DNA of 64,000 bases, taken from positions 55,217 to 119,216 of the IMG/VR virus record IMGVR_UViG_3300047274_000273; one strand, 5' to 3'. The position numbers and the translations under genes are program-made. The DNA comes from a virus (Duplodnaviria; Heunggongvirae; Uroviricota; Caudoviricetes). The notes below the pieces were generated by a model that worked only from the letters and a program-made list of their open reading frames with translations, had not been told where the DNA came from and did no database searches. How positions within the stretch are numbered: the stretch's first letter is position 1; each line of letters starts with the position of its first letter. Shown here one piece after another: positions 1,321 to 54,149 of this stretch.

Positions 1321-1721
1321 AGAAAGTAATTGTAAATGGAACTTTTGATATCTTCCACCTCGGGCACCTTAGATTATTGCAATACGCAAGGTCAGTACCT
1401 GACTCTTATGTATATGTTCTCATAGACAGTGACCGTCGAGTTAAACAACTCAAAGGTAATGACAGGCCTATACACAGCGAATACGAACGTGCAAGTTTCT
1501 TAGCAGCATTAAGAGCAGTCGATAGGGTAGATATATTTGACACCGATGACGAACTAATAAACTACATTAAAAACTTTGCTCCAGATATCATGGTCAAGGG
1601 CAGCGACTATAAAGATAAACCTATCATTGGAGCAGAATACTGCAAGAAGATTATATTCTATGACAGACTGGAAAAATACTCAACCACAAACAAAATACAA
1701 GATATTATTAATAGGAGATAA
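1317..1721 (+). CDS. heptose 1-phosphate adenylyltransferase (HldE domain II / HldC-like cytidylyltransferase fold)
   Basis: NGTFDIFHLGHLRLLQYAR (HxGH nucleotidyltransferase motif); RVKQLKGNDRP, VKGSDYK, STTNKIQDI. These align with the RfaE/HldE C-terminal domain. Confidence 0.75.
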   Translation: MKKVIVNGTFDIFHLGHLRLLQYARSVPDSYVYVLIDSDRRVKQLKGNDRPIHSEYERASFLAALRAVDRVDIFDTDDELINYIKNFAPDIMVKGSDYKDKPIIGAEYCKKIIFYDRLEKYSTTNKIQDIINRR

Positions 1722-2421: not shown

Positions 2422-3281
2422 TAGTCTTAACTGGAGCAGGTGGTTTTATTGGTAGTGTGATGTTGGGCTACCTCAACAAACAGGGCCGAGATGACGTTGT
2501 AATTTTCGATGATCTACCGCAGTCCAATCAATTTCAAAATCTAGTTGGCAAGAAGTACACTAACCTCTATAGGACACAGGATACCCCTGATCTAGATAAC
2601 ATAGAATGTGTGATACATCTAGGAGCCAACAGCAATACCCTAGAAAAAGATTGGAGTAGTATCTATAAGACCAACGTAGAATCTACTAGACTTTGGAATG
2701 CATTTTGTCTAGAACGTAACATTCCACTGATCTTTGCATCGTCTGCGGCGGTCTATGGTAATGGTCACGGTCCGATGAACCAATATGCATTTTCTAAACA
2801 TGTCAGTGAAAACGAAATCACTGCGGTGCGTCTTAGGCTGTTCAACGTCTACGGTCCAAACGAGCATCACAAAGGAGTCATGGCCAGTACAATCTACCAT
2901 TGGTATCAGCAGTTACAGTCGTCATCTAATATCAGGATCTTCCAAAATAGTAGACAGTACTTTAGAGATTTTATCTGGGTCGAAGATGTCTGTAAAACTA
3001 TCTATTATTTCATGACTAATTATCAGCCAGGCATCTACGATCTAGGCACAGGGAAACCCCGAGACTTTGAGTCTGTGGCTGATTTGGTCTTAAAGACAGT
3101 TGGACGTGGCGGAAAAACGTTTGTAGACATGTCTGAAGATCTCAAGGCACAGTACCAGACCTACACACGGGCTAACACAGATAGACTAGTTGAAGCAGGC
3201 GTACAGGTTCAAGAGTTCTTGGGCATAGAAGATGGTATTCCTCTATATATAGATTATCTCAAGAATGATTCTTACTATTAA
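2418..3281 (+). CDS. hldD: ADP-L-glycero-D-manno-heptose 6-epimerase-like NAD-dependent epimerase (HldD/RfaD family)
   Basis: [13 protein letters not shown] Rossmann start, short-chain epimerase layout, length 287 aa. Follows the HldE-like genes. Confidence 0.65.
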
Positions 3282-4465
3282 AATATCTGCTTGAGTGCAG
3301 ATACTAGGTCGCTCATCATGGCATCGTCATGATAGGGAGTAGGAGCGAATCTTAGTCTTTCGGTGCCTACCGCCACAGTTGGATAATTTATAGGCTGTAC
3401 ATAGATATTATAATCTGCCAGTAGTTGATCGCTCATGGCCTTGCATTTTTTAGCTTCCCCTACTAGTACAGGAACGATATGAGTAGTGCTGTCCATGACA
3501 GGTAGATCATTCTCTTTCAGCAGTTGTTTGAGCTTGGTAGCCCGCTCTTGATGGCGAACACGTATCTCGTTGTGATCTTTCAGCCATTTGACCGCAGCCA
3601 ATGCTCCTGCACAGGCCACAGGACTCATTGAAGTGGTAAAGATAAAACCAGCAGCTACCGAACGGATAGCATCAACGACATCTGCATCGGCAGCAATATA
3701 GCCACCTTGGACTCCAAAGGCCTTGCCTAGGGTACCATTGATTATATCAATCCTAGACTCTAGTCCGAGTTCTTCTACTTTTCCACCTCCGTGGGTTCCA
3801 TAGAGCCCTACCGCATGTACTTCGTCGATATAGGTAATGGCCTGATACTTGTCTGCGAGATCGCAGATATCTCGTATAGGTGATACATCACCGTCCATTG
3901 AGTAAACTGATTCAAATACTATACAGGGTGTATAGCCTGCGAGCTTTGAGGCTGCGAGTTTATCTTCTAGATCGTTTAGGTCATTGTGTTTGAAAACCTG
4001 TTTGGGGGCCTTAGAATGTTGTATGCCAACGATAAGGCTGTTGTGATTCTTACTGTCGCTGATAAATTGGATGTTATCAATGATCTTGCTCAGGGCAATG
4101 ATAGTCCACTCATTGGCCACATACGCAGAGCTGAACAGTAGAGCCTTGCTCTTATTGTGCAGCATGGCCAGTTCGTGTTCTAGGGCCACATGATAATGGC
4201 TGGTCCCCCCAATGTTACGAGTACCGCCCGAACCCGCGCCTGTTTGATCTAAGGCAGTGTGCATGGCATCTAGAACCACTTTGTGCTGCCCCATGCCTAG
4301 ATAGTCGTTGGAGCACCAATTAACTATAGTTTTAATGTTATAGGGACCGTACCAAATAGCACGAGGAAACTTGCCCGCTTCGCGAACGATGTCGTTAAAC
4401 ACGCGATATTTGCCCGTGTCTTTGAGATCTAGTATGAGTTTTTTAAAGGGTTCTTTGTTTATCAT
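3278..4465 (-). CDS. hemA: 5-aminolevulinate synthase (alpha-oxoamine synthase family, PLP-dependent)
   Basis: [63 protein letters not shown]. Alignable almost end to end with Rhodobacter-type ALAS. Confidence 0.8.
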
Positions 4466-5262: not shown

Positions 5263-6597
5263 ATGGCTGAACGTAATCAAAGCAATACCACAAACTACGA
5301 GCATCCTCAGGAGAGTAATCTTCTAAACGTCCATAAGGCTATGGAGTACAATGCTTTAGGGCAACCTGTGCTTCGTACCACACTTAAGGTAGGACAGACA
5401 GATGCGTTTGGTCGTATTCGTATGTCTAGTCCGTTTACCTTAGGTGACTACAAACACTTATATGGATTAGATCCAAACTTTATTGACTATGCAGTTAACG
5501 GTGGTACAGTAGCATTTCAACCTAACAAAGCCTGTGCTAGACTAACAACCTCAAACGATCCTAGCAGTCGAGTAGTGCATCAGACTAAATTCTATCATCA
5601 CTACATGCCAGGCAAGAGTCAACAGATATTAAGTAGTTTTAACTTTTATGCGGCTACACCTAACGTAACTAAGCGTACAGGTTACTTTGACGACAACAAT
5701 GGTATCTACTTTGAACAAGCAGGCGACGGCACTCTATCGTGGGTTATACGCAGTTATACAACTGGAGCACCACAAGAAGTTCGCAAAACACAATCGCAGT
5801 GGAATATTGATCAGTGTAACGGACAAGGCGGCAGTCTGTTTAACTTAGACATAACTAAAACACAACTATCATTTATAGAGTTTCAATGGTTAGGTGTGGG
5901 TTCAGTTACTGTAGGATTTGTACACGAAGGTGCATTTATTCCCTGTCACATATTCCATCACTCTAATGATTTGTCTACTGTGTATATGAGTACACCTAAC
6001 TTGCCTGTACGCTGTGAAATTGTAAACACAGGCGAAACCACAGGTGCTTACTTTGATCAGATATGTTCAACTGTGGCTAGTGAAGGGGGATATGTAGAAG
6101 CAGGTATTGATTGGGCCGTAACTAGTCCTACATTAAAAACGATTGCCTCTGGCGCTACTTTGCCTATCATAGCTATTAGATTGAAAACAGCATTTAGAAC
6201 CTATGCCAATCGTATGATTGTACGCATGGGTAATCTTAAGATGTTTAGTGATGGCGACAGTATCAAGTGGCGTTTGCTAAAACTACCAGACAGTACCTAT
6301 CTCAACGATACCAATTGGGTTGATGTAGATGATGACAGTGGTGTTCAGTATAACGTAGATGCTACTACCTGGACCGACGGTGATGAACTGGACAACGGAT
6401 GGGTTGGTGCTAGTACACAAGGTAGTCAAAAAGCAGGCGGTGCGCCAGCATCTAACCTGCCCAGTGAAGCTAAGAAAAACTACATTGTACAAAACTATGA
6501 CAGTACTAATAGTGAAATCTATTTGGTAGTAGCAACTAATATTGGAGCACAGAGCACCAACGTAGGTGCGGGACTACAGTGGCGGGAGATTTATTAA
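5263..6597 (+). CDS. hypothetical beta-rich 444-aa protein (possibly virion-associated)
   Basis: Long ORF, Gly/Thr/Asn-rich beta-strand-like composition; no catalytic motifs recognised. Confidence 0.4.
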   Translation: MAERNQSNTTNYEHPQESNLLNVHKAMEYNALGQPVLRTTLKVGQTDAFGRIRMSSPFTLGDYKHLYGLDPNFIDYAVNGGTVAFQPNKACARLTTSNDPSSRVVHQTKFYHHYMPGKSQQILSSFNFYAATPNVTKRTGYFDDNNGIYFEQAGDGTLSWVIRSYTTGAPQEVRKTQSQWNIDQCNGQGGSLFNLDITKTQLSFIEFQWLGVGSVTVGFVHEGAFIPCHIFHHSNDLSTVYMSTPNLPVRCEIVNTGETTGAYFDQICSTVASEGGYVEAGIDWAVTSPTLKTIASGATLPIIAIRLKTAFRTYANRMIVRMGNLKMFSDGDSIKWRLLKLPDSTYLNDTNWVDVDDDSGVQYNVDATTWTDGDELDNGWVGASTQGSQKAGGAPASNLPSEAKKNYIVQNYDSTNSEIYLVVATNIGAQSTNVGAGLQWREIY

Positions 6598-29543: not shown

Positions 29544-29804
29544 ATGCCAGGCGCAGCGAGACAAGGACAAGATACAGCAGGCGGAGTTATAATCGGCGGA
29601 TCACCGAACGTATTTGTTAACCTCTCTCCTGTAGCAAGAATTGGCGACCCAGTTGTGCCTCACGGCAAAGGTCCTCATGCCGGACCAGTGATGGCGGCAG
29701 GCAGCGGAAATGTCTTTGCTAACAATATTCCTGTGTGCAGAGCAGGTGACACAGCTACCTGTGGTCATGCAGCTTCCGGTTCAGGAAATGTAATCGTAAA
29801 TTAA
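29544..29804 (+). CDS. PAAR-repeat protein (spike-tip, gp5.4-like)
   Basis: Repeated GDxxxCGH/PAAR-like segments: IGDPVVPHGKGPHAGP and RAGDTATCGHAASG. Confidence 0.7.
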   Translation: MPGAARQGQDTAGGVIIGGSPNVFVNLSPVARIGDPVVPHGKGPHAGPVMAAGSGNVFANNIPVCRAGDTATCGHAASGSGNVIVN

Positions 29805-33736: not shown

Positions 33737-34115
33737 ACAATCATGGAGCCTTCTAGATCCGAAACCAGTGATGCTGTATCTTTCCAATCTAGATGAATAC
33801 ATCGTATATTGGAACGGTATCGCCACTACACATCTAATGGCTTTAAATTTAGCCATGGAGTATTATGGTATCTTTCCTACCCCTGAAATGAAATCAGCTA
33901 TGGAGCAAAACTACAGCAAGATTTACTATGCGAATGGTTTCAATACAAGAGCATGGGATCTTAAAGTATCCAGTTCGCCAATTTATCCCTATGTGAAAAG
34001 GCTGTTGGCAGAACACTGTAAAAAAGTGATTGACGAATCGGGTCGAGATATTTCTGAAGTTTTAGGCTGGTTCGATTACAGTCGAGCAAGAAAAGAACAA
34101 TGCGCTGATAGCTAA
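33720..34115 (+). CDS. hypothetical protein (3' end overlaps the tRNA by 14 nt)
   Basis: ORF only. Confidence 0.35.
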   Translation: MKMRSEQSWSLLDPKPVMLYLSNLDEYIVYWNGIATTHLMALNLAMEYYGIFPTPEMKSAMEQNYSKIYYANGFNTRAWDLKVSSSPIYPYVKRLLAEHCKKVIDESGRDISEVLGWFDYSRARKEQCADS

Positions 34116-34177
34116 ATGGAACAGCAGGAGCCTCTAAAACTCCAGATGCGTGGGTTCGATTCCCACTCAGCGCACCA
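34102..34177 (+). tRNA. tRNA with anticodon CUA (candidate amber suppressor), CCA encoded
   Basis: 76 nt. 7-bp acceptor stem GCGCUGA/UCAGCGC; U8; A14, G18, G19, A21; anticodon loop cuCUAaa with U33 and A37; T-arm GTGGG-TTCGATT-CCCAC; discriminator A; 3' CCA. One mismatch each in the D and anticodon stems; 6-nt variable loop. Confidence 0.6.
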
Positions 34178-36030: not shown

Positions 36031-36561
36031 GTGGTGTTCCATTTCAACAAAAAACACCTAGAGGACCAAACCATACCTATGTGGGTCCTAAAAACACATG
36101 GGGAATCATTTTACGTCAATCACGTGACCTGCGAGATACCTTGGACTACCAAGGAAACGCCAGACAACTCGCATACCAAAGGCAGTATCAAAGTCAAAGA
36201 TTGTCTATTGACAATTGACGAAGAAAACTCTGCTACTATCAGTAATCTTTCAGTATTTGATAAAATCCGCTTACGCAACCAAAAGTTGGGTATCACTAGG
36301 ATAATCTTCTCTTGGGGATCCAAGATGCATACAGCTCTAGCCGGAAACGAGTTCAAACACAGTCCTTTCAAGAATGTTGAAGGAGGCTGTGGAACTAGTT
36401 TCGTTATCTGCGATCTACTAAAGAAAGAAGAAGCTACATTAGCAGCGTTGAAATATCCAAACTGTTGGCGTGTTCTCAAACCAAATGAGGCCTACTATCA
36501 GCGATACGATCAGAAAGGCACGATTTGGGAAGATGAAGATCTTGACGAGGATGACGAATGA
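36031..36561 (+). CDS. hypothetical protein
   Basis: ORF only. Confidence 0.35.
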   Translation: MVFHFNKKHLEDQTIPMWVLKTHGESFYVNHVTCEIPWTTKETPDNSHTKGSIKVKDCLLTIDEENSATISNLSVFDKIRLRNQKLGITRIIFSWGSKMHTALAGNEFKHSPFKNVEGGCGTSFVICDLLKKEEATLAALKYPNCWRVLKPNEAYYQRYDQKGTIWEDEDLDEDDE

Positions 36562-36587
36562 GTGTTAAATAACTGTATTGCTGTATG

Positions 36588-36899
36588 AAGCAAAGAGAAA
36601 AGTGTTCTGGACGCGGGTTCGATTCCCGCCCGGTCCACCAGAAAGAATTCTTCACCCTGTATAGAGACAGACAAGTGCTATAGACTATACTAAAGAGTTC
36701 TTTCTAATGGGCCGGACCTGGTTTCGACAGGGCAAAGAGTAACAGAGTGGACAGCAGGGTAGGCGATGACCCTAAATCAAGCAAAACTATAACTGCAAAC
36801 GCAGCTAATGACGAGGTTTACGCTCTAGCAGCCTAAACTTCCGGGGCAGGTATGCCTTGTAACCAAAAATACCAAAGCGGCTCTTGTGGCCGCTTTTTC
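36588..36899 (+). ncRNA. ssrA: two-piece (circularly permuted) tmRNA: acceptor piece upstream, coding piece with tag ORF downstream, intrinsic terminator
   Basis: 36607-36640 GGACGCGGGTTCGATTCCCGCCCGGTCCACCA is nearly identical to the E. coli tmRNA 3' end (T-arm, 3' acceptor, CCA). 36709 GGGCCGGACCTGGTTTCGACAGGG is the tmRNA 5' end-like, forming G3:U70 with the upstream acceptor strand. Tag reading frame 36795-36836 reads GCAAACGCAGCUAAUGACGAGGUUUACGCUCUAGCAGCCUAA (..ANDEVYALAA stop). Terminator at 36876-36899. Confidence 0.8.
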
Positions 36900-36927
36900 T
36901 TGACTTTTACTGATAGTTTGTTATATA
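36900..36927 (+). promoter_or_regulatory. sigma70-like promoter TTGACT-16-TATATA
   Basis: Sits directly after the tmRNA terminator in a 200-nt AT-rich region upstream of ahpC. Confidence 0.45.
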
Positions 36928-42977: not shown

Positions 42978-44438
42978 ATGAAAATCAATATTAGCGATCG
43001 TATCATTGCCTATTTGGCCCTAGTCAGCGGTTTATCAATATCCGCAGTGGCTATCTATTACTCTGTTGCAGGCCTAGTGTCTATCTTTGCCGCGGCAGTG
43101 ATTCCTATCACGGTTATGGGTGTGGTCTTAGAAGTAGGCAAGCTATCGGCCACTGTTTGGTTGAAGCAAAATTGGTCTGTGGCACCTAGGTTCCTTAAGG
43201 CCTACCTAATGATCGCTATCACGGTGCTGATGTTGATTACCAGCATGGGTATATTTGGTTATCTTTCTAAGGCGCATTTAGATCAAGCAGTACCTACAGG
43301 AGATGTAGCTGCCAAGGTCGCTCTCCTAGACGAAAAGATAAAAACAGAAAGAGACAATATCGAAACAGCCCGTGCCGCTATAAAACAAATGGATGCACAG
43401 GTCGAAGCGAGATTAAGTCGCAGTGATGACGAAAAAGGTGCAGAACGTGCTGTGCAAATACGTCGTCAACAACAGACAGAGCGCGGCCGCTTACAAAAAG
43501 AAATTGGCGATGCTCAGGCACGTATCGCAAAGCTAAATGAAGAACGAGCTCCAATCGCCAGCGAGCTTCGTAAAGTAGAAGCCGAAGTTGGACCTATCAA
43601 ATATATCGCTGCATTGATGTACGGTGATAATCCAGATCAAAATCTTTTAGAAGCTGCGGTAAGATGGGTCATCATTATCATAGTTTTTGTATTTGATCCG
43701 TTAGCAGTGATTCTGTTATTGGCCAGTCAGTATAGTTTCTCTTGGTTCCGCAAGCAGGAAGAAGAAAACCAATTACCTCCAGAGAACGTCGAAGAGGCAC
43801 CAATCGAAGAAGCAGTAGTCGAAGAAGAAAAAGAGGACGACTTTAAATTCTTGGCCGAAGATGAGGATCTTTATCCAGAAGGAAAACCTTGGGAAGAAAA
43901 AGAAAAAGAAAACGAATACAAGATCACTCCCGAAACTCACTCTTATCTTTTCAAACCATGGGTAAGCCGTGTGCCGGGAGTTGAACCTGTAGGCCCATTG
44001 GTTTATAAACCAGAAACTGATACAGTGATCACTCCTGAATCTGCGGTTGAAGAAGAACTAGACACAGACGACGAGGATGAATTAAATCATCCTGACGATT
44101 CGGCAGAAATGAAAGCAGCCAAATCTTCATGGAAACATGATCATCCTAATGACTCGTTGAAGCGTCATCGAAAGCTATTCGAAAAAGGCATCATCTCAAA
44201 ATTACCTTGGGAAAGTTATCTAAAACCTCAGGCAGATTTCAGCGACGACGAAGCAGCCGAGGAAGCAGCCAAGTGGGCCGCTGAACAACTCGAAGCCAAA
44301 AAAAAAGGCAGTGACTTGGATAGAGAGAGTGGGCAAGGAACAGATAACCAAAACCAAAGATTGATAGAAAACTACGAACAGAATGCTGAACAAAGTGAAT
44401 CCACTCTTTGGAAAAAGATAAAAGATGCTAAAAGATGA
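42978..44438 (+). CDS. membrane protein with coiled-coil and acidic C-terminal region
   Basis: Three N-terminal TM helices, a long coiled coil, a further TM helix and an E/D-rich tail. Confidence 0.4.
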   Translation: MKINISDRIIAYLALVSGLSISAVAIYYSVAGLVSIFAAAVIPITVMGVVLEVGKLSATVWLKQNWSVAPRFLKAYLMIAITVLMLITSMGIFGYLSKAHLDQAVPTGDVAAKVALLDEKIKTERDNIETARAAIKQMDAQVEARLSRSDDEKGAERAVQIRRQQQTERGRLQKEIGDAQARIAKLNEERAPIASELRKVEAEVGPIKYIAALMYGDNPDQNLLEAAVRWVIIIIVFVFDPLAVILLLASQYSFSWFRKQEEENQLPPENVEEAPIEEAVVEEEKEDDFKFLAEDEDLYPEGKPWEEKEKENEYKITPETHSYLFKPWVSRVPGVEPVGPLVYKPETDTVITPESAVEEELDTDDEDELNHPDDSAEMKAAKSSWKHDHPNDSLKRHRKLFEKGIISKLPWESYLKPQADFSDDEAAEEAAKWAAEQLEAKKKGSDLDRESGQGTDNQNQRLIENYEQNAEQSESTLWKKIKDAKR

Positions 44439-44813: not shown

Positions 44814-45053
44814 ATGAAAAAACTCTACGAAGACAGAAAAGGTACAGGTGTTACTGTAAAAGAACACGAGAATATCAATCAAGCTCTACGCCGTTTTAAG
44901 AAGAAAGTAGAAGAGTCTGGCACACTAGAAGCTCTTAGAAAAAAAGAGTTTTATGAAAAGCCTACGACTGTAAAAAAGAGAAAAGCGGGTGCTGCTAAGG
45001 CTCGTTGGCAAAAGAAACTCAGAGATCAACAACTACCTCCCAAACTATTCTAA
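44814..45053 (+). CDS. rpsU: ribosomal protein bS21
   Basis: ALRRFKKKVEESGTLEALRKKEFYEKPTTVKKRK aligns with bacterial S21 (ALRRFKR...EFYEKPT..RKR). Confidence 0.85.
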   Translation: MKKLYEDRKGTGVTVKEHENINQALRRFKKKVEESGTLEALRKKEFYEKPTTVKKRKAGAAKARWQKKLRDQQLPPKLF

Positions 45054-45065
45054 GAAAGGTATTCT

Positions 45066-46100
45066 ATGCGTATCGAAGACGAAGTCAAGCTAGACTTCCG
45101 TGATGTGCTGATCCGTCCTAAGCGTTCTACGCTGTCAAGTCGCAAAGAAGTAGATCTCAATCGTACTTATAAGTTTAAGCATAGCGGTGCAGAATGGACC
45201 GGTGTTCCAATCATGGCCTCTAACATGGATGGAGTTGGTACACTTTCCATGGCATCAACTTTATACGATCATCGTATGTTTACCTGTTTGGTCAAATCAT
45301 ATGAGGAAGACGATCTCTTCGAAATCACAGGAAAGATTGGTGGAAATTATTTTGCGGTCAGTACCGGCACCAGCGAAAATGATTTTAGAAGATTAAGTCG
45401 GATCATCAATTCTTACCCCGAAATCCATTTTATCTGCATCGATGTGGCCAACGGGTATTCGGAAAGATTCGGAGATTATGTAGCGGATGTTAGAGATGCA
45501 TTTCCGCATTGTACAATTATCGCTGGTAACGTTGTTACCGCAGACATGACACAGGAGTTAATTTTACGTGGCGCGGACATTATTAAAGTGGGTATTGGCC
45601 CTGGTAGCGTTTGTACTACTCGTATCCAAACTGGTGTGGGCTACCCACAGCTTAGTGCTATTATTGAGTGTGCCGATGCCGCTCATGGTCTTGGCGCTCA
45701 TATTATTGCTGATGGTGGATGTGTTTGCCCTGGTGATGTTGCTAAGGCTTTCGGCGCTGGTGCGGACTTTGTGATGCTGGGCGGTATGCTGGCCGGACAT
45801 GATGAAGGTGGTGGTACCATTGTTTCTGAAGACGGATACAATCCTAGGGTAATCTTCTATGGAATGAGTTCAGATACCGCTATGAACAAACATCATGGTG
45901 GTGTCGCGGAATATCGATCATCTGAAGGTAGGACAGTAGAAGTAAAATACAAGGGTTCAGTTAATGGCACAGTGTTAGATCTCCTGGGAGGTTTGAGATC
46001 TGCATGTACCTATGTCGGAGCTCCGACTCTAAAGCAGCTATCTAAGTGTACTACATTTATTAGAGTGAATAGACAAATCAACGATGTGTTTTTAAAATAA
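45066..46100 (+). CDS. guaC: GMP reductase
   Basis: [23 protein letters not shown]...[11 protein letters not shown]...GGMLAG...[12 protein letters not shown]. Near co-linear with E. coli GuaC. Confidence 0.9.
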
Positions 46101-46723
46101 TGCTTGACTTTTATAACAAAAAACAATATAATAATACTATGAACACTGACGTAATGATTGATTTAGAAACACTAGATGTACGACCCTCAGCAACAGTATT
46201 GACTATCGGCGCTGTAAAATTTGATCCTTTTGGTTCTGATATTGAAGAACCCTCAATGGAAAAATTTTATGTTAGAGTCGATGTTGATAGCTGTGATCGA
46301 CTAGGCTGCACAGTTAGCCAATCTACTCTAGATTGGTGGGCCGGCCAAGATAAGGCTGCACAGGACGAAGCATTTGATCCTAATGGTAGGATTGACATTG
46401 TTGATGCAATGAATCAACTTTACAAATTCTGCTGGGGAGCCAAGCGTGTATGGAGTCATGGCGCAGGTTTTGATATTATTATCTGCGAAACATTATTCCA
46501 TAAAATTGGAAAAGCAGTTCCTTGGAGTTTTTGGGAAGTACGAGATACACGTACTTTGTTTGATTTAGGTATCGACTCTCATCGTCCGCCTGTACTAAAG
46601 CATCATGCCCTAGAAGATGCTTGGAACCAGGCTGTGGGAGTTCAAAATGTTTTTAAAATTTTAAGGACATCGAGCTCTAGTCTTAACGGAAAATTGATTA
46701 TGCCCTTGGCTAATCAGAGATAA
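46100..46723 (+). CDS. DEDD-family 3'-5' exonuclease (DnaQ-like)
   Basis: IDLETLD (Exo I) and HGAGFD (Exo III-like). The start could be 46139. Confidence 0.5.
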   Translation: MLDFYNKKQYNNTMNTDVMIDLETLDVRPSATVLTIGAVKFDPFGSDIEEPSMEKFYVRVDVDSCDRLGCTVSQSTLDWWAGQDKAAQDEAFDPNGRIDIVDAMNQLYKFCWGAKRVWSHGAGFDIIICETLFHKIGKAVPWSFWEVRDTRTLFDLGIDSHRPPVLKHHALEDAWNQAVGVQNVFKILRTSSSSLNGKLIMPLANQR

Positions 46724-46755
46724 ATAAAATTTATAAACTGTACCAATATGTGGGC

Positions 46756-46801
46756 AGTTTATAGGGCATAGTGCCCAAATAGATCTTACTTTACAAGGAG
46801 A
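46756..46801 (+). promoter_or_regulatory. conserved heat-shock-type promoter/leader cassette upstream of dnaK
   Basis: AGTTTA-N11-GCCCAAAT-N4-CTTACTTTACAAGGAGA; the same cassette precedes hsp20. Confidence 0.45.
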
Positions 46802-46805
46802 TATT

Positions 46806-48695
46806 ATGTCTAAGATCATCGGTATTGACCTCGGCACCACCAACTCATGCGTGGCTATCGTCGAGAACGGAACTTCCAAAGTTATTGAAAATTCAGAAGG
46901 TGCAAGAACTACACCTAGTATCGTTGCCTATGCTAATGATGAAATCCTCGTAGGCGCATCAGCCAAGCGTCAAGCAGTAACTAATCCTAAAAATACAATC
47001 TATGCGGCCAAGCGACTAATTGGTCGTAAGTTCAAAGAACAGGCTGTACAAAAAGATATCGATCTCATGCCATATGAAATCATGGAAGCCAAGAATGGCG
47101 ATGCATGGGTTAGAGCACAGGGCAAAGAACTAGCCCCTCCACAGATTTCCGCAGAAGTCCTTCGCAAGATGAAGAAGACCGCAGAAGATTATCTTGGTAC
47201 TACAGTTACTCAAGCAGTCATTACTGTTCCTGCGTACTTTAATGATCAACAACGTCAGGCGACCAAAGATGCAGGACAGATCGCAGGATTAGAAGTACTG
47301 CGTATCATCAACGAGCCAACCGCGGCCGCTCTAGCTTACGGTGTTGATAAGGAATCAAAAGGCGATCGCAAGATCGCAGTCTATGACCTAGGTGGTGGTA
47401 CATTTGACGTTTCGATTATTGAAATCGCGAATGTTGATGGTGATAAGCAAATCGAAGTATTGTCTACAAACGGTGACACTTTCCTGGGCGGTGAAGACTT
47501 TGACCAACGTATCATGGACTACTTGGTCGACGAATTCCGTAAAGAGCAGGGAGTGGATCTAACCAAGGACATGTTAGCTTTACAACGACTCAAAGATGCT
47601 GCTGAAAAAGCTAAGATTGAATTATCTAGCAGCACACAAACAGAAGTTAATCTTCCATATATCACAGCAGATGCCAACGGTCCTAAGCACTTAGTAGTCA
47701 AGTTGTCCAAAGCTAAACTAGAAAGCCTAGTTGACGATCTAATCCAACGCTCATTAGAGCCTTGCCGCATCGCTATGAAAGATGCAGGTGTTACTGCCGC
47801 TGACATCGACGAAGTTATTCTTGTTGGCGGTCAGACACGTATGCCTAAGGTACAAGAAGAAGTTGAGAAGTTATTTGGTAAAGCACCACGTAAAGATGTG
47901 AATCCAGACGAAGCAGTGGCTGCGGGCGCTGCTATCCAAGGTGCTGTTCTTGGCGGTGACCGCAATGATGTTCTATTACTAGATGTTACACCATTGAGCC
48001 TAGGTATTGAAACACTGGGCGGTGTAATGGCTAAGATCATCCAGAAGAATACAACTATTCCTACTAAGGGACAACAAACATTTTCTACAGCAGAAGATAA
48101 TCAACCTGCGGTAACTATCAAGGTTTTCCAGGGTGAACGTGAACTCTGTCAGCACAATAAGCTCTTGGGCGAATTTAATCTAGAAGGCATCGCTCCGGCA
48201 CGTCGCGGCCAGCCTCAGATCGAGGTTGCTTTTGATATCGATGCCAATGGTATCATGAATATCAGTGCCAAGGACAAGAGCACAGGTAAAGAAAATAAGA
48301 TCACTATCAAGAGCGACAGCGGTCTGAGCAAAGAACAGATCGAGCAGATGATTCGCGATGCTGAAGCTAATGCAGAAGCAGATAAGAAATCCAGAGAGCT
48401 TATTGAAGCTAAAAATCAAGCAGAGTCTACAGTTCACGAAGTGAAGCGTGATATGGAAGAACTCAAGGATGATCTCAGTGATGCCGAAAAGGCTGAAATT
48501 GAATCTGCGATCGCAGCCGTTCAAGAAGCAGCCAAGACAGACGACACAGACAAGATCAAATCCGAGCTTGAAAAAGTTTATCCGGCAATGAAAACATTGT
48601 TGGAAAAAAAGCAGGCCAAAGAGCAATCACAGGCTCAACCTGCTGGTACAGATGATAATGTAGTCGATGCTACCTTTACGGAGAAAAAAGACTAA
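46806..48695 (+). CDS. dnaK: chaperone DnaK (Hsp70)
   Basis: [21 protein letters not shown], full-length 629 aa with C-terminal lid. Confidence 0.95.
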
Positions 48696-48701
48696 TTATC
48701 A

Positions 48702-48750
48702 TGTTTAGGGGTACCTACGGGGCCCTAATTGTTCTTACTTTATAAGGAGA
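48702..48750 (+). promoter_or_regulatory. conserved heat-shock-type promoter/leader cassette upstream of hsp20
   Basis: TGTTTA-N14-GCCCTAAT-N4-CTTACTTTATAAGGAGA. Confidence 0.45.
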
Positions 48751-48755
48751 CTATT

Positions 48756-49190
48756 ATGAACAATCAACTCGCAAGACTAGATGCTCTGAACAGAGCTCTT
48801 ATTGGTTTCGACACCATGTTCGACCAAATGGAACGCCGTTTCGCTAACAGCGTTAATAATAACTATCCCCCACACAACATCCTACGTTTGGCTGACAATG
48901 AATATGCCATTCAACTGGCTGTCACGGGCTTTGATAAAAGCGAAATTTCAGTGACTATTGAAAACAACGTTCTAGTTGTCAAGGGTGAAAGCATGACCAC
49001 TGATTATGCTGCTGAACAATATCTACACCGTGGACTAGCTACCCGAGACTTTGTCAAGGAATTTTCTCTTGCAGAGCACATCGAAGTAGCAGGCGCAGAA
49101 ACTAAGAACGGTATGCTAACCATTAAGTTGATTAGAAACATTCCAGAATCTGCCAAACCGCGTGTCGTTGATATCGTAGAGGTTAAGTAA
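48756..49190 (+). CDS. small heat-shock protein (Hsp20/IbpA family)
   Basis: Alpha-crystallin domain (YAIQLAVTGFDKSEISV...LLVVKGE). Start moved to 48756 to sit behind the SD. Confidence 0.8.
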   Translation: MNNQLARLDALNRALIGFDTMFDQMERRFANSVNNNYPPHNILRLADNEYAIQLAVTGFDKSEISVTIENNVLVVKGESMTTDYAAEQYLHRGLATRDFVKEFSLAEHIEVAGAETKNGMLTIKLIRNIPESAKPRVVDIVEVK

Positions 49191-49194
49191 ATAT

Positions 49195-49216
49195 ATATGG
49201 GGGCAAAGCCCCCATA
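49195..49216 (+). terminator. GC-rich hairpin between hsp20 and clpS (possible attenuator or weak terminator)
   Basis: atgggggc-aaa-gcccccat, but with a poor U-tract. Confidence 0.35.
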
Positions 49217-49233
49217 TCATCGAAGGAGAACTT

Positions 49234-49536
49234 ATGAGCACTGAAATCCAATTTGATGAAAAGGTAAAGGTTGGTCTTCAACCGCCTAAGATGTGGAAGG
49301 TCATTTTTCTTAATGACGATCACACTCCCATGGAATTTGTCATGGAATTGCTAACTTCTATTTTCAGACACAGTGAAGAAGAAGCTAGGACGATAACTCT
49401 AGAAATCCACAATTCGGGCAGCGCAGTTGTTGGAGTTTATACTCACGAGATTGCTGAGCAGCGAGGTCTTGAATCTACACAATTAGCTAGAAGTAATGGA
49501 TTTCCGTTGAGAATCACTCTTGAACAAGAGCAATGA
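49234..49536 (+). CDS. clpS: ATP-dependent Clp protease adaptor ClpS
   Basis: PKMWKVIFLNDDHTPMEFVMELL...AEQ aligns with ClpS (P.MYKV.L.NDD.TPM.FV). Confidence 0.85.
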   Translation: MSTEIQFDEKVKVGLQPPKMWKVIFLNDDHTPMEFVMELLTSIFRHSEEEARTITLEIHNSGSAVVGVYTHEIAEQRGLESTQLARSNGFPLRITLEQEQ

Positions 49537-49809: not shown

Positions 49810-50367
49810 ATGAATCTAAAAGAACTCACTCACGAACAACACAGAAGGGCCGAAACTCGTCCTTTTGTCAAGGTACTATTTTCAGGTAATGTAAATCCTA
49901 AGATTTATGCGACCTATCTAAAAAATCAGCATCCTATGTACGAAATCTTAGAAGTCTGTGCCATGCCGCATGGACTACTAAATGGACTATCCGAAATACG
50001 CAGAGCACCGGCGATACTCGAGGATTTCTCCGAACTATGGGGAGATTCAGATGAAAAGCCATATATGTGTCCTGTAGTAGATGATTATATCAAATACATT
50101 CTCGGTATCAAGGATAACCCAGAAAAATTAATGGCACATATCTATGTTCGTCATATGGGAGATCTCAGCGGCGGACAGATGATAGCTAAACGTGTTCCCG
50201 GTACCGGTAAGTATTATCAATTCGGCGATTCTCCGGAAAAGATCAAAGAAGCTATCAGATCAAAACTAGATGATAGTATGGCTGAAGAAGCCAAAGTCTG
50301 CTTTGATTTTGCCGCTAGATTTTTCGACGAAATGATGGAAGTGGTAAAATTATATGACACAGAGTAA
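49810..50367 (+). CDS. heme oxygenase
   Basis: LKELTHEQHRRAETRPFVK...NPKIYATYL: the heme-oxygenase N-terminal proximal helix with conserved His. Confidence 0.7.
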   Translation: MNLKELTHEQHRRAETRPFVKVLFSGNVNPKIYATYLKNQHPMYEILEVCAMPHGLLNGLSEIRRAPAILEDFSELWGDSDEKPYMCPVVDDYIKYILGIKDNPEKLMAHIYVRHMGDLSGGQMIAKRVPGTGKYYQFGDSPEKIKEAIRSKLDDSMAEEAKVCFDFAARFFDEMMEVVKLYDTE

Positions 50368-51040
50368 GGTCTGGGATACACTGATAGAAATACAAACTCT
50401 ATTAGAAGATTCTTTTAACCGCACAGGTAAAGAAGTATTCGAGCCAGGAATGGATCGTTTCAATCAGCCGGGTTGGGTAAATCGTGTCTGGACCAGTGAC
50501 AGTTATCGTAGAGCTCATATCGATGTAGTCGATGCCCGATCCACAAAGGGCCTTTGGATGATGCACTGCTGTATCTTCCCACATATCCATAACCCGGCAC
50601 CCATATTTGGTTTTGATGTTATCGCAGGTAAGAACAAAATCACAGGTTGTTTTCATGATTTTAGTCCCGCAGGTGATAGCGAGCATCACCTAATCGATTG
50701 GTTCGCAGATGAAGCCAGTAGATTAGAGTGGAATAAAACCCGTAAACTTCCCGAGTGGGCGGAGCGTATTTTTACAGGTAGTATGATAGCTGCCGGTAAT
50801 GTACAAGATGAAGCTGAACTAGAACAGCTCACAGATCTTGTAAAATTAACCACTAAAGTCTATCTACAGCACGTGGGCGATACGAATCATACTGCAAAGA
50901 ATACTACCTTTAATCAAAATTTCTACGCCCAAAATCAAAAAATGAATCCTCATACTCCTAAAGTAATGGCTAGCCTAGGCCTGAACGAAGAGGATGTACA
51001 GGTGTTTATACAGGATTGTCTGTTCCCAGAGATCCGATAA
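50354..51040 (+). CDS. ferredoxin-dependent bilin reductase (PcyA/PebS/PcyX family)
   Basis: FDBR family layout with central GFDVIAG and conserved His/Asp positions (HIDVVDA, HDFSPAGD). Overlaps the ho gene by 14 nt. Confidence 0.7.
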   Translation: MTQSKVWDTLIEIQTLLEDSFNRTGKEVFEPGMDRFNQPGWVNRVWTSDSYRRAHIDVVDARSTKGLWMMHCCIFPHIHNPAPIFGFDVIAGKNKITGCFHDFSPAGDSEHHLIDWFADEASRLEWNKTRKLPEWAERIFTGSMIAAGNVQDEAELEQLTDLVKLTTKVYLQHVGDTNHTAKNTTFNQNFYAQNQKMNPHTPKVMASLGLNEEDVQVFIQDCLFPEIR

Positions 51041-51050
51041 ATACTCTGTT

Positions 51051-52427
51051 ATGAGATTTTTTGAATTTAATCTACACGAGTCATCTAGAGGAATCCTATT
51101 TCGTACAGTAGGAGATCCCTTTAAATCCACTGCGGACCCTAATAAAACACTGACCTATGCAGGATCGCAGACATTTCCCGCCCCAGTTCCGGGCCAAGGT
51201 GCAGCTCAATTTCCCGATCCTGAAACATTTAATCAAGAAGTCGCTGCTGCTGAAAAAAAGTTTCCGGGGATCACATGGACTAATAAATCAAATGCTTCGA
51301 TGCGAGCATTTGCTGTGGTTACCTTAGACGATCCTGTCGCAAAGAAGAAGGTACATTTTGGTAGATTTTTCAAAGAAATATCACCGGACATGGCAGGTAA
51401 ATGGAAAAATGACGGTATACCCGGATATAGTCTAGAAATTAAATCTTCAAAGAAATCTAGATCGGGTCTTAAGCCCAACGATCTAATTCCATTAGGGCAG
51501 CAATTTCCAAACCCACAGGCACTTATAGAAGCTCTAAAACCAGATTTAGATCCTGCTATCAAAGCAGGATTGACAATGATAGTTGAAAAGAAACTACCAG
51601 TGTTTAATGTTGATGCTAGCATGGAAGCAGCTATTAGAGATGACCTAGGGGAAATAATCGCTCCCATGGCACTATGGCAAGGCATGATATCTGCAGAAGC
51701 AGAGTCAGCTAGAAAGTTTTTGTTGAAAACAACACCATGGAGTGCCTGTGCTATAACATTTTCATCAACTAAGAATGCAGGCTTGATTGATAGCTATGTT
51801 AAACCTCCAAAAGGCGTAGCTGTTGGTATTTCTAGTAAGGGTGCAGAAGGAGCTAAGGCATCTGCATCGAACATATGGGCAGGTGTTGAATTGCTACGTT
51901 CTACAGGACAACAAGATGTTGTCGATCAATACCCAGAAGCTGTTCATGTATTAGAAATGATCAAGCGAGAATCTCAATACCGAGGACCTATGGTACTAGG
52001 TACAGAATATGGTTTTCTTACTGGTCAAGACGAAACATTGATCAACCAGGCAATCAAGCAGGGAATGCAAAAACTACCTCCAGGACCAGAATGGGAAAAC
52101 ATAGGTGCATTAATGAAAAAATTTGCTCCTAGAGACATGTCTAAATCTAACTATAACATAGGGTATCATGCTCTTGCCGGATTGGCAAAAATGGTACAAG
52201 AAAAAGTCAACAGTAGTGTTCCAAAGTTTAGTGAAGCGTGTATAACATTCCTAAATAGTTCTCCATTATTACAGATACATCTGTATACCAAAGCATCCGG
52301 TAATACTGTTTCAGTAACCGGTTTCAAAACAATATGGCCTCCACAGTTCAAAGGATCCGTATCTCTCAATGCCGGCAAGAGTTATTATGCTACCGGTGTC
52401 ATAAACAAGTTCGCGTTTAGTTGGTAG
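51051..52427 (+). CDS. hypothetical protein with MRFFEF N-terminus
   Basis: Start chosen at ATGAGATTTTTTGAATTT, identical to the start of the ORF at 21901. Confidence 0.4.
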   Translation: MRFFEFNLHESSRGILFRTVGDPFKSTADPNKTLTYAGSQTFPAPVPGQGAAQFPDPETFNQEVAAAEKKFPGITWTNKSNASMRAFAVVTLDDPVAKKKVHFGRFFKEISPDMAGKWKNDGIPGYSLEIKSSKKSRSGLKPNDLIPLGQQFPNPQALIEALKPDLDPAIKAGLTMIVEKKLPVFNVDASMEAAIRDDLGEIIAPMALWQGMISAEAESARKFLLKTTPWSACAITFSSTKNAGLIDSYVKPPKGVAVGISSKGAEGAKASASNIWAGVELLRSTGQQDVVDQYPEAVHVLEMIKRESQYRGPMVLGTEYGFLTGQDETLINQAIKQGMQKLPPGPEWENIGALMKKFAPRDMSKSNYNIGYHALAGLAKMVQEKVNSSVPKFSEACITFLNSSPLLQIHLYTKASGNTVSVTGFKTIWPPQFKGSVSLNAGKSYYATGVINKFAFSW

Positions 52428-52497: not shown

Positions 52498-52953
52498 ATG
52501 AAAAAATTGATAGCTGTGGCCATGGTTGCCTCTATGGCCGTTTCTGCACACGGAGCAGAAATAGTACATCAGTTCAATAGCCCTTCTTTTTCTGGAATAG
52601 GCTTCTCTAGTCATACGTTGACAATCTATTCCCAGGAACTAAGTAGAAAATTAGCTATTGCCGCTGAAAAAAAGGCAGAAGAGTTAAAAGCAGAGCAAGA
52701 TGCTAAAAATACCACACAGGCCAAGTTTATTGCGAACTTAGAAAGTAGGGTATACAACGAACTTGCACGTCAAATCACAGAAAAACTGTTCGAAGGAACA
52801 GGCACACAAGTCACTGGAACCTTCGCGTTCAACGGTGGCACCATTCGTTATACAAAAACAGGTAACGAAATAACCATAACAATAACAGGTGCAGACGGAA
52901 GTGTAACTACCATGACTGTGCCAGTAGGAGACTTCGGATGGCTAGCACCTTAA
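52498..52953 (+). CDS. csgF: CsgF-like curli assembly protein
   Basis: Signal peptide; mature N-terminus IVHQFNSPSFSG versus E. coli CsgF TMTFQFRNPNFGG; similar length. Confidence 0.55.
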   Translation: MKKLIAVAMVASMAVSAHGAEIVHQFNSPSFSGIGFSSHTLTIYSQELSRKLAIAAEKKAEELKAEQDAKNTTQAKFIANLESRVYNELARQITEKLFEGTGTQVTGTFAFNGGTIRYTKTGNEITITITGADGSVTTMTVPVGDFGWLAP

Positions 52954-54149
52954 TGAAACTTACACCGATAGCACTGGCTATCACACTAACTGGCTGTGGA
53001 ACAATAGGCAATGCTGTCCGATCATTTGACGAGCCTACTGTAACTAAACCTACACTAAAAGTAGAATCAACCTTAAAAGAACCGGCTGCTGGGGCTATCG
53101 CCATAGCTGTCTACAACTTCCGTGATATGACTGGCCAGCGTAAGGCCAGCCAAAACATTGCCAGCCTTAGTTCGGCTGTAACACAAGGTGCAGATGCTTA
53201 CCTTGTTAAGAGCCTACAAGAAGTAGGTGGCGGTCGTTGGTTCAAAGTATTAGAAAGAGGTGGATTAGATAATCTGGTCAAAGAACGTCAGCTTATCCGT
53301 CAAATGCGCGAACTGTATCAAGGTAAAGATGCACAGCCTTTACCTCCTATGCTGTTCGCTGGAATCATATTAGAAGGCGGTATTATCGGCTATGATTCTA
53401 ACACAATGAGCGGCGGATCCGGTGCTAGATTCCTAGGCATTGGCGCTTCTACAGAATATCGACAGGACGAAGTTACTATCAGCCTACGAGCAGTTTCAGT
53501 AGCCACTGGAGAAGTTCTAGTGACTGTGAACACAAACAAAAAAGTCTACAGTTTTCAAGACAAGCTAGGAGTTTTGCGTTTTGTAGATGCCGGAACACAA
53601 GCACTGGAGTTAGAAACAGGTTCTGCTACTAACGAATCTATGAACAAAGCGGTACAATTAGCCATACATGCTGCGGTCATAGAACTTATTAACTCTGGAG
53701 CAGGAAAAGGTCATTGGGCATTTAAATCCGATGTTGCTGCGGCACCTCAGCCAAGACCAGAACCTGTGGTTGTAAAAGAGGAGGAGGTAAAGAAAGATGA
53801 GTTGGTTCAAAAGGACTCCGCACCTAAAGAAGAAAAAATTGAAGCACCTGCGACACCCGCAGTACCACAACCCGATGACAGAAAAACTGTTACAGAAGAG
53901 CCAGCAAGAACAGAATCAAAAAACACAGACACAAACACAGTAATAACCGTGCAGCCTAAAGTTACTTTAGGAAATGTCACAGATTGGGTAAACGTAAGAA
54001 AAGAACGCGATATAAACAGCGAAAAGTTAGCCAATCTTAGGCCTGGAACGCAAGTAGAAGTACTTGATACTAAAGGCGATCACTACGTTGTTAGAGTCAA
54101 CGGAAAGGAAGGTTATGTAGTAAGAAAATTTATTAAGGTACAAAAATAA
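52938..54149 (+). CDS. csgG: CsgG-like curli secretion channel lipoprotein with C-terminal SH3b domain
   Basis: Lipobox LTGCG. IAVYNFRDMTGQ, LERGGLDNLVKERQLIR, GGIIGYDSNTMSGGSGARFLGIGAS and ISLRAVSVATGEVL align with E. coli CsgG. C-terminal VNVRKERD...GTQVEVL...YVVR is SH3_3-like. Confidence 0.8.
   Translation: MASTLMKLTPIALAITLTGCGTIGNAVRSFDEPTVTKPTLKVESTLKEPAAGAIAIAVYNFRDMTGQRKASQNIASLSSAVTQGADAYLVKSLQEVGGGRWFKVLERGGLDNLVKERQLIRQMRELYQGKDAQPLPPMLFAGIILEGGIIGYDSNTMSGGSGARFLGIGASTEYRQDEVTISLRAVSVATGEVLVTVNTNKKVYSFQDKLGVLRFVDAGTQALELETGSATNESMNKAVQLAIHAAVIELINSGAGKGHWAFKSDVAAAPQPRPEPVVVKEEEVKKDELVQKDSAPKEEKIEAPATPAVPQPDDRKTVTEEPARTESKNTDTNTVITVQPKVTLGNVTDWVNVRKERDINSEKLANLRPGTQVEVLDTKGDHYVVRVNGKEGYVVRKFIKVQK

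Follow-up and report, generated by a model that had tools for sequence, protein, structure and literature searches.

Two neighbouring chaperone genes of a tailed phage are preceded by almost the same short stretch of DNA, and the question raised by this repeat is whether it is a promoter or a signal that acts on the messenger RNA. The genes, dnaK (Hsp70) and hsp20 (an IbpA-family small heat-shock protein), are followed by clpS in a 64,000-nucleotide (nt) stretch of a Caudoviricetes genome (IMG/VR record IMGVR_UViG_3300047274_000273, positions 55,217 to 119,216). This whole stretch is referred to as the window herein, and positions are counted from its first letter. A preliminary description had taken the repeated cassette for a sigma32-like heat-shock promoter ending in a 17-nt leader that contains the Shine-Dalgarno (SD) sequence. 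We found the cassette before dnaK and hsp20 exactly as described and before no other gene of the window. What stands is a shared heat-shock-type cis element with an SD on both genes; its promoter nature does not, so that the earlier interpretation is, overall, partly supported. From sequence comparisons we consider it likely that the cassette is a structured 5′ mRNA leader that resembles, and probably descends from, the ROSE-like RNA thermometers found on ibpA/hsp20 genes of Proteobacteria. In the phage lineage, three chaperone genes appear to have received this leader, namely hsp20, dnaK and, in relatives, groES.

Structure and conservation of the leader

The 17-mer CTTACTTTAYAAGGAGA lies at 46785-46801 and 48734-48750, the sole two sites in 64 kb when as many as 3 mismatches are allowed; this is the outcome, within the window, of a motif search that the preliminary description had proposed. 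The 17-mer does contain the SD, and its AAGGAG forms the 3′ arm of a predicted hairpin (HP), HP3. When the window was searched with a covariance model of the cassette (filters off), two significant hits were returned, at 48704-48750 (expectation value, E, 1.7e-6) and at 46748-46801 (E 1.3e-3). The next-best match (E 0.13; 29625-29654, - strand; AAUUCUUGCU..AGGAGA) runs antisense within an open reading frame (ORF) at 29544-29804, has no HP1 and is probably due to chance.

Table 1. Predicted leader hairpins, genes and other features. Positions refer to the window unless a locus (L) of a related or cultured phage is named.
Feature	Position	Strand	Details
T4-type late-promoter motif ATAAATA	46720-46726	+	upstream of dnaK; overlaps the exoribonuclease stop codon
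HP1, dnaK leader	46732-46763	+	10-bp stem, bulged A46742, C-C-A/U-G-G apex, U.G wobble beside the bulge; RNAfold, RNAalifold
HP2, dnaK leader	46764-46776	+	GGGCA-UAG-UGCCC; short, optional
HP3, dnaK leader (ROSE-like hairpin)	46783-46802	+	AUCUU[A]CUU-UAC-AAGGAGAU; RNAalifold consensus
dnaK (Hsp70)	46806-48695	+	629 aa, intact; Pfam HSP70 E 1e-256, full length
HP1, hsp20 leader	48708-48726	+	GGGGU[A]CC-UACG-GGGCCCU; begins 12 nt after the dnaK stop codon
HP3, hsp20 leader (ROSE-like hairpin)	48733-48750	+	UCUU[A]CUU-UAU-AAGGAGA
hsp20 (IbpA-family small heat-shock protein)	48756-49190	+	144 aa, intact; Pfam HSP20 E 4e-17
G+C-rich palindromic hairpin AUAUGGGGGC-AAA-GCCCCCAUAU	49195-49217		between hsp20 and clpS; perfect 10-bp stem
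clpS (ClpAP N-degron adaptor)	49234-49536	+	100 aa, intact; Pfam ClpS E 5e-29, profile positions 2-80/80
bS21	44814-45053		family match
tmRNA, permuted (two-piece type)	about 36528-36927	+	tag ANAANDEVYALAA
ClpP, C-terminal fragment	16-345		cut by the window start
Cassette before hsp20, Syn19	L272:305-356		ROSE-like
Cassette before hsp20, P-SSM3	L273:304-352		ROSE-like
Cassette before hsp20, S-PM2	L274:328-380		ROSE-like
groES with the same leader, relatives	L115:5895-5941; L160:1919-1971; also L037, L070, L087, L113		

As listed in Table 1, the dnaK leader is predicted to fold into three hairpins (HP1, HP2 and HP3) and the hsp20 leader into two (HP1 and HP3), the hsp20 HP1 having the bulged-purine shape seen in HP1 of dnaK and in bacterial hsp20 leaders. 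Within HP3 of dnaK, the SD AAGGAG is paired, with a U46787.G46798 wobble, a bulged A46788 and a C46789-G46797 pair, and the AUG at 46806 is unpaired. HP3 of hsp20 likewise pairs the SD, bulges A48737 and leaves the AUG at 48756 unpaired, and in both leaders the hairpin ends 3-5 nt before the start codon. Predicted free energies for dnaK HP3 are -7.4, -5.5, -3.6, -2.3 and -0.8 kcal/mol at 10, 20, 30, 37 and 45 °C, those for hsp20 HP3 are -4.1 kcal/mol at 25 °C and -2.4 at 37 °C, and the predicted pairing probability of the SD drops as temperature rises. Deletion of the bulged base is predicted to strengthen HP3 at 37 °C from -2.3 to -6.1 kcal/mol in dnaK (A46788) and from -2.4 to -4.6 kcal/mol in hsp20 (A48737). 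Ranking the window's genes by predicted SD pairing over a fixed segment (-40 to +6) placed dnaK 5th of 39 and hsp20 outside the top 15, a ranking that is uninformative as a control because the boundary of the segment fell within HP2 and SDs were located by a crude rule. Pairing between the HP1 loop (ACCUU) and the SD was also considered and was dropped, as it holds in some variants only.

An exact scan of viral contigs for the 17-mer yielded 134 sites on 114 stretches, with about 123 directly before dnaK, hsp20 or groES; the remaining ~11, before unrelated genes, are about as many as we estimate by chance for a collection of this size. Since such a search is biased to the leader, relatives were gathered through the DnaK protein instead. 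This recovered 593 related loci in the viral contig collection, of which 80 were kept (780 kb of DNA). Whole-leader MAFFT alignments misaligned the 3′ arm of HP3, and we therefore built the covariance model R1, comprising HP1 and HP3, from 17 leaders of equal loop length and realigned the others with Infernal. R1 gave 113 hits in the 780 kb, all 113 on the gene strand and at start positions of dnaK, hsp20 or groES. A generic phage promoter, which the preliminary description had named as the reading that would undo its own, would stand before many unrelated genes, and no such pattern was seen. Likewise, CTTRCTT-N2-9-AAGGAG followed by an ORF precedes only these three genes within the DnaK-anchored loci. 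Some of these relatives encode a GroES (cochaperonin) of 95 aa, whose gene lies between dnaK and hsp20 or 5′ of dnaK.

Upstream of dnaK, one layout is common to all 67 distinct relatives: (A/C)TAAATA, 4-6 nt, HP1, often HP2, an A/U-rich spacer and then HP3, which runs CTT[A/G]CTT, 2-8 variable nt and AAGGAG(A), with ATG 5-8 nt further on. RNAalifold predicted the three hairpins from 30 dnaK leaders. In its general form, HP1 has a single bulged purine on the 5′ side with U.G or C-G below it and C-G pairs above, HP2 reads GRGCA-NNN-YGCYC, and HP3 reads x-CUU-[R]-CUU / loop / AAG-GAG-A. Among 92 distinct leaders, compensatory changes were found at 9 of the 10 pairs of HP1. Over all 17 model pairs, 96% of cells pair, vs 52.9-69.0% with the partner slid, and none of 500 shuffles reached the observed covariation score. 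HP2, which is present in 45/65 dnaK leaders and 10/61 hsp20 leaders, has a middle pair (alignment columns 49:59) that is A-U in 15 sequences and G-C in 14, GGGCA/TGCCC alternating with GAGCA/TGCTC. The six core pairs of HP3 are fixed or, in two sequences, changed on one side (U.G to C-G), and there is next to no variation in CUU-R-CUU and AAGGAG, in contrast to the loop length (2-8 nt) and the flanks. With invariant arms, covariation speaks neither for nor against HP3. The HP3 bulge was a purine in every one of 120 related leaders (G in 66, A in 54), the anti-SD motif being UUGCU or UCGCU in 66 and UUACU in 54.

Comparison with ROSE-like thermometers

ROSE-like elements are described as having two to four hairpins, the SD lying in the 3′ hairpin, where it pairs imperfectly with U(U/C)GCU around a bulged G; the short Pseudomonas ibpA type consists of a stable, G+C-rich first hairpin and a labile second one with the AUG free, and a crystal structure contains U.G, the bulged G and C-G (PMC3669281, PMC11342760, PMC11182007). 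Both window leaders form a 5′ untranslated region (UTR) directly upstream of a heat-shock gene, and both have this number of hairpins and the SD in the 3′ one. They are also similar in sequence and structure to accepted members, as judged from the hits of R1. On the E. coli ibpAB locus, of which ibpA is cited as a validated ROSE-like thermometer (PMC3669281), the top match of R1 was the validated ibpA hairpin itself (CUC[G]CUG-AUUU-CAGGAG, E 0.0014). The second was the ibpB leader CUCGCUUcuuagAAGGAGA, in which CUCGCUU-cuuag-AAGGAGA compares with UCUUACUU-uau-AAGGAGA of the phage.

To the bacterial side we added 80 hsp20 loci, fetched using an alignment of the phage Hsp20 proteins. The bacterial Hsp20 proteins nearest to the phage protein among those recovered are alphaproteobacterial, at 40-50% identity. 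R1 matched the segment directly 5′ of hsp20 in one genome of the Puniceispirillales (SAR116; E 1.6e-11), in a metagenome-assembled genome labelled Rhodobacterales (E 2e-11) and in three Pelagibacteraceae (SAR11) genomes (E 2.5e-8 to 3.7e-5). The hsp20 leaders of Sphingomonas and Caulobacter carry a bulged hairpin GCCGGACGCC-loop-GGGUCCGG (GGACGCC..GGGTCC) plus CCUUGCU..AGGA. In these two parts the classical ROSE element (RF00435; Bradyrhizobium hspA, Caulobacter and Sphingomonas hsp20) resembles the phage leaders, its GGACGCC-loop-GGGUCC with a bulged G corresponding to HP1 and its CCUUGCU..AGGA hairpin to HP3. It differs in having 3-4 G+C-rich hairpins, and its Rfam model gives nothing on the phage leaders.

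The closest counterparts are the short elements of ibpA and ibpB in Pseudomonas and E. coli. As in the phage, these lie in the 5′ UTR of an IbpA-family gene, place a stable G+C-rich 5′ hairpin before a labile 3′ hairpin with the AUG unpaired, and oppose the SD to a U/C-rich anti-SD through U.G (or C-G), a bulge and C-G. Unlike them, the window copies have a bulged A (UUACU) rather than a bulged G, and their HP3 is predicted to be ~2 kcal/mol weaker than the hairpins of E. coli ibpA (-4.6 kcal/mol) and ibpB (-5.1 kcal/mol) at 37 °C. The bacterial genes follow a sigma32 promoter whereas the phage has a late-type motif, and the phage element also stands before dnaK and groES, in genomes of virulent T4-like phages.

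Cultured T4-like cyanophages carry the cassette as well. The hsp20 leaders of Syn19, P-SSM3 and S-PM2 were matched by R1 (E 3e-5, 3.9e-9 and 5.9e-7, respectively), and in each of them a bulged-G hairpin is followed by CUC[G]CUU-loop-AAGGAG, with the motif UCGCU. A TTAAATA motif lies a few bases 5′ of the hairpin in Syn19 and P-SSM3. The hsp20 gene is a core gene of T4-like cyanophages (PMC3037559). In the searchable library, with subscription journals outside the search, we found no literature combining cyanophage, hsp20 and thermometer. Phage-borne 5′ UTR structures reported to tune translation by temperature include those of lambda cIII, SPbeta blyA (fourU) and a candidate sigma70-gene thermometer of one gut Caudoviricetes phage (PMC11182007, PMC10586365). 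They share this general role with what we propose here and differ in being fourU or alternative-structure switches on lysogeny or lysis genes, none of them being ROSE-like or on phage chaperones.

Several observations weigh against a ROSE-like thermometer in the window. Its copies read UUACU (46786-46790 and 48735-48739), one base off the U(U/C)GCU motif that close relatives have, and the bulged base is A (A46788 and A48737) rather than G, with the U.G wobble, the single bulge and the C-G geometry kept. Neither Rfam ROSE (RF00435) nor another ROSE-named family gave a hit at E <= 10 on the window leaders. HP3 lacks support from covariation; the evidence for its pairing is the complementarity of its arms and the analogy to relatives that have been validated. 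The second pair of the HP3 extension, below the stem, forms in only 56% of leaders; an alternation of A-U (37) and U-A (30) in that extension (x2-y1) was for this reason not counted as support. Folds of the full-length dnaK leader leave its SD partly unpaired, with a predicted pairing probability of 0.3-0.9 per base at 10 °C. Moreover, at -2 to -6 kcal/mol the hairpin may work as an attenuator of translation and not as a switch, and aquatic hosts may rarely meet temperatures that open HP3 fully.

The silence of Rfam is to be read against the behaviour of the ROSE model itself. In a calibration scan its sole hit was the Sphingomonas leader, at 34.6 bits and so below the 45-bit threshold, with none in Caulobacter, SAR11 or SAR116; the model is narrow. 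Three loci of related phages (L149, L172 and L187) likewise gave it no hit at E <= 1, and no known Rfam family was recognised at the leaders, whether the whole window or the leaders alone were scanned. Because the window copies depart from the literal motif and from the Rfam model, we file them as a variant resembling ROSE-like elements and not as a strict member.

Transcription and competing explanations

If the cassette is an RNA element, transcription should begin upstream of it, and the sequence before HP1 suggests where. The ATAAATA upstream of dnaK (Table 1) has a counterpart ~4-6 nt 5′ of HP1 in 67/67 distinct dnaK leaders, which were found via DnaK and independently of the leader. ATAAATA is not over-represented in the window (13 sites vs 17.7 expected), and 10 of the 13 sites lie within 90 nt (about 20-90 nt) upstream of a start codon on the same strand. 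The share of sites so placed by chance is ~6%, giving P about 1e-10 by our own binomial estimate. The motif, which stands before dnaK and many other window genes, resembles the T4-type late promoter (a -10 element, TATAAATA, without a -35, read by gp55/gp33), from which it differs in that the first T is not conserved; searches for T4 late promoters in cyanomyoviruses use TATAAAT (PMC3037559). This arrangement suggests that the phage drives dnaK from a late-type promoter of its own.

No promoter motif precedes HP1 of hsp20 in the window. Terminators were sought as a G+C-rich stem followed by a T-run, and the scan found this combination on the + strand neither at 48708-48726 nor at 49195-49217. 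The latter hairpin, beyond which clpS begins as the preliminary description had noted, is terminator-like on the - strand only, where it has a T-rich tail, and it is therefore not a canonical terminator of the chaperone transcript. It may be an mRNA stabiliser, a processing site or a terminator of antisense transcription. It lies outside the ROSE-like cassette, the cassette model giving E 5.6 only, on the - strand, and the SD of clpS (AAGGAGA, 49223-49229) has no anti-SD partner and is an ordinary one. As hsp20 lacks a promoter motif and neither intergenic hairpin is terminator-like on the + strand, dnaK, hsp20 and clpS are probably carried by one late transcript.

The sigma32 reading would have (A/T)GTTTA as the -35 box, GCCC(A/T)AAT as the -10 box and the 17-nt leader as the 5′ UTR of a transcript made by the host RpoH holoenzyme. 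GCCCWAAT, and CCCCATTG in some relatives, do look loosely like the sigma32 -10 box CCCCATNT, the genes are classical members of the sigma32 regulon, and the homologous bacterial hsp20 leaders follow sigma32-type promoters (for example CTTGAAA..CCCACAT in SAR11, CTTGAAA..CCCATTTTT for E. coli ibpA). Against this, the proposed boxes coincide with paired bases: the dnaK -35 AGTTTA lies in the 3′ arm of HP1 (CAGTTTAT, 46755-46762), the dnaK -10 GCCCAAAT starts with the 3′ arm of HP2 (TGCCC, 46772-46776) and the hsp20 -10 sits in the 3′ arm of HP1 (48720-48726). Across relatives, a substitution among these bases is matched by one in the opposite arm (GCCC to GCTC with GGGC to GAGC), which is the signature of a structure and not of a box read by a protein. 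The spacing of the boxes is unequal (11 nt for dnaK, 14 nt for hsp20), the hsp20 -35 TGTTTA is not conserved in relatives, and HP2, the bearer of the dnaK -10, is missing from 20/65 dnaK leaders. A sigma32 promoter proper, with CTTGAA and CCCCATNT 13-17 nt apart and conserved among orthologues, is not what the cassette contains, and CTTGA-N13-19-CCCNWT occurs nowhere in the window. GCCCWAAT, for which a search had been suggested, occurs 7 times vs 3.45 expected, which alone is not significant. Together with the late-promoter motif at a fixed distance upstream, this makes the sigma32 reading very improbable; judged by its sequence, the cassette is not a sigma32-like promoter and such an annotation is wrong. 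CIRCE, said earlier to be absent, indeed gave 0 matches in the window (TTAGCACTC-N9-GAGTGCTAA, up to 3 mismatches).

A ROSE-like, SD-sequestering hairpin as the conserved part of the leader would place control at translation. In the mechanism we envisage, dnaK would be transcribed from the late promoter with a start just before HP1, so that its mRNA would begin with a stable hairpin; hsp20 would probably share this transcript, and clpS possibly too. The anti-SD CUU[R]CUU of HP3 would pair with the SD AAGGAG(A) through the U.G wobble, the bulged purine and C-G, leaving the AUG free. At about -4 to -6 kcal/mol at 15-25 °C and ~-2.3 at 37 °C, HP3 would limit 30S binding in the cold, and warming would melt it and raise translation of the phage chaperones. 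The G+C-rich HP1 and HP2 would keep the sensor folded, with HP3 not mispaired, and protect the 5′ end. On this scheme dnaK and hsp20 would each have a translational sensor of their own, and clpS an ordinary SD. Thermosensing by the phage leaders is inferred, and the weaker HP3 would fit a lower temperature set-point for aquatic (lake or ocean) hosts.

Two explanations dispense with temperature as the main signal. The cassette could serve expression and mRNA stability, HP1 and HP2 being 5′-end or intercistronic stabilisers or processing sites and CUURCUU a U-rich enhancer beside a strong SD, acting by S1 binding or by an epsilon-like contact of the T7 gene 10 type to give high late synthesis of chaperones. 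HP1 starts at the inferred 5′ end of the late transcript, 5′ stem-loops are known stabilisers of mRNAs and have been discussed as such for ibpA (PMC3669281), HP3 is weak, and the few exact 17-mers before unrelated genes in other phages are at chance level. The leader also resembles that of T7 gene 10 and pET (TTAACTTTAAGAAGGAGATATACATATG), ACTTTA-N-AAGGAGATAT being comparable to TTAACTTTAAGAAGGAGATATACAT; the T7 leader belongs to a capsid gene and is described as an enhancer with an SD, not as SD-sequestering. A generic enhancer would be expected on other highly expressed late genes, and the cassette is confined to chaperone genes. The bases that do not vary are precisely the ones that can pair with the SD, loop length and flanks change without loss of the U.G/bulged-purine/C-G geometry found in validated thermometers, and the element matches leaders of bacterial heat-shock genes for small heat-shock proteins. 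We regard this explanation as unlikely.

Somewhat less likely still is a translational operator, in which an RNA-binding protein would hold HP1 and HP3 by their shared U.G/bulged-purine/C-G module and temperature would be secondary; the protein that sets chaperone output during infection in this way could come from the phage (a RegA-like repressor) or from the host, or be a chaperone in a feedback loop. The HP1 apex, Y-[R]-C-C...G-G-G-Y, is conserved over very divergent stems, beyond what a folding aid would seem to need, HP3 is invariant, and in S-PM2 regA is followed directly by hsp20. The cassette has, however, no candidate protein linked to it, and the same HP1 motif occurs in free-living Sphingomonas, Caulobacter and SAR11, bacteria whose ROSE elements are reported to work without a protein (PMC3669281). 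A ROSE-like leader remains the explanation we favour.

Genomic setting and implications

The leaders belong to a conserved phage proteostasis module, dnaK-hsp20-clpS, near which ClpP, S21 and tmRNA lie, as the preliminary description had pointed out. The order dnaK-hsp20-clpS is kept in ~77 of the 80 related phage loci, within the longer order S21-(GMP reductase)-exoribonuclease-dnaK-hsp20-clpS-(orf86)-heme oxygenase-bilin reductase. Hsp20 of the window shares 44% identity with E. coli IbpA, and ClpS 45% with its E. coli counterpart. The ClpS translation contains LNDDHTPMEFV (NDD..PMEFV) and EIH, which we interpret, by comparison with E. coli ClpS, as its N-degron pocket; by fold and by these residues, the clpS product is, at the level of sequence, a ClpS adaptor. 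The ClpP, bS21 and tmRNA reported elsewhere in the window were found, ClpP only as a C-terminal fragment. That dnaK lacks its partners agrees with our searches: tblastn with E. coli queries detected neither the DnaJ J-domain nor GrpE nor GroES within the window.

Directly 5′ of dnaK lie a GMP reductase/IMPDH-family gene and a Rv2179c-like 3′-5′ exoribonuclease gene (45066-46723, +). After clpS and orf86 come a heme oxygenase (49810-50367) and a ferredoxin-dependent bilin reductase (50354-51040), both on the + strand, and most relatives keep this pair in synteny with the chaperone module. A homologue of the curli secretion channel CsgG, with an SH3 domain at its C terminus (52938-54149, +), is like those of pelagimyophages and a marine methylophage; the ORFs at 50994-52427 and 42978-44438, near it, gave no family match. 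Beside the ClpP fragment, 342-4465 holds cupin, HAD/PNK-phosphatase-like, PfkB kinase and NAD-dependent epimerase genes of sugar or nucleotide-sugar type, together with a class I/II aminotransferase gene on the - strand. The tmRNA scored 138 bits with the Rfam tmRNA_permuted model and 134 bits with beta_tmRNA; among clan members the beta-type model was kept over the alpha or cyano models, which may be relevant to the identity of the host. At 34102-34177 (+) ARAGORN calls a tRNA ('tRNA-Pyl') whose anticodon, CUA, reads the amber codon UAG; it could be a phage-borne amber suppressor. TAG is the stop codon of 9 of 87 predicted ORFs, which gives no obvious sign of recoding across the genome.

The virion protein at 5263-6597 is closest to T4-like cyanophages (50% identity to S-RIM32), and the window encodes S21 and CsgG, which it shares with pelagimyophages and which have been described as features of that group (PMC7029224). 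Early-type promoter motifs (TTGAC-N17-TATAAT) occur in intergenic regions, for example before 40006, 41654, 22308 and 63129. Taken together, the virion protein, S21 and CsgG and the two promoter types point to an aquatic myovirus of the T4-like kind that has promoters of an early (sigma70-type) and a late (T4-type) class. A DNA similarity search against cultured phages found similarity of the dnaK coding sequence to bacterial-type dnaK only and no close relative. We also considered the Moraphages, large Bacteroidota phages with DnaK/DnaJ (PMC12619734); that lineage is unlikely given the strong SDs, the TTGAC-N17-TATAAT promoters, the T4-like cyanophage-type virion protein and the S21 and CsgG shared with pelagimyophages.

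The leaders are thus a new setting for a known kind of element: virulent T4-like phages, with dnaK and groES as targets and a bulged-A variant. A paper from 2024 puts the number of RNA thermometers in phage genomes at only two or three, with no ROSE-like one and none on chaperones (PMC11182007), whereas the cassette described here gave 113 model hits over 80 loci of related phages, and a related DnaK is encoded at 593 viral loci. A broader picture can be offered only tentatively, and we would sooner doubt it than rely on it. Aquatic T4-like phages, from cultured cyanomyoviruses to the dnaK-bearing lineage, might possess a sigma32-independent 'heat-shock regulon', in which a ROSE-derived sensor was captured together with a host ibpA-type hsp20, re-promoted with late promoters and copied onto dnaK and groES. 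Water temperature would then act on translation to set how much chaperone is available for late morphogenesis, and the bulged A and the weaker hairpin would represent a re-tuning to a lower set-point. HP1, which repeats the U.G/bulged-purine/C-G module, may in this picture be a second sensor or a handle for a protein. Since S-PM2, Syn19 and P-SSM3 are in culture and carry the hsp20 cassette, the prediction is directly testable at the bench. If it is true, ROSE-type control extends from genes for small heat-shock proteins to dnaK and groES, and temperature would directly modulate the chaperone output of these phages, and perhaps their burst size, in lakes and oceans.

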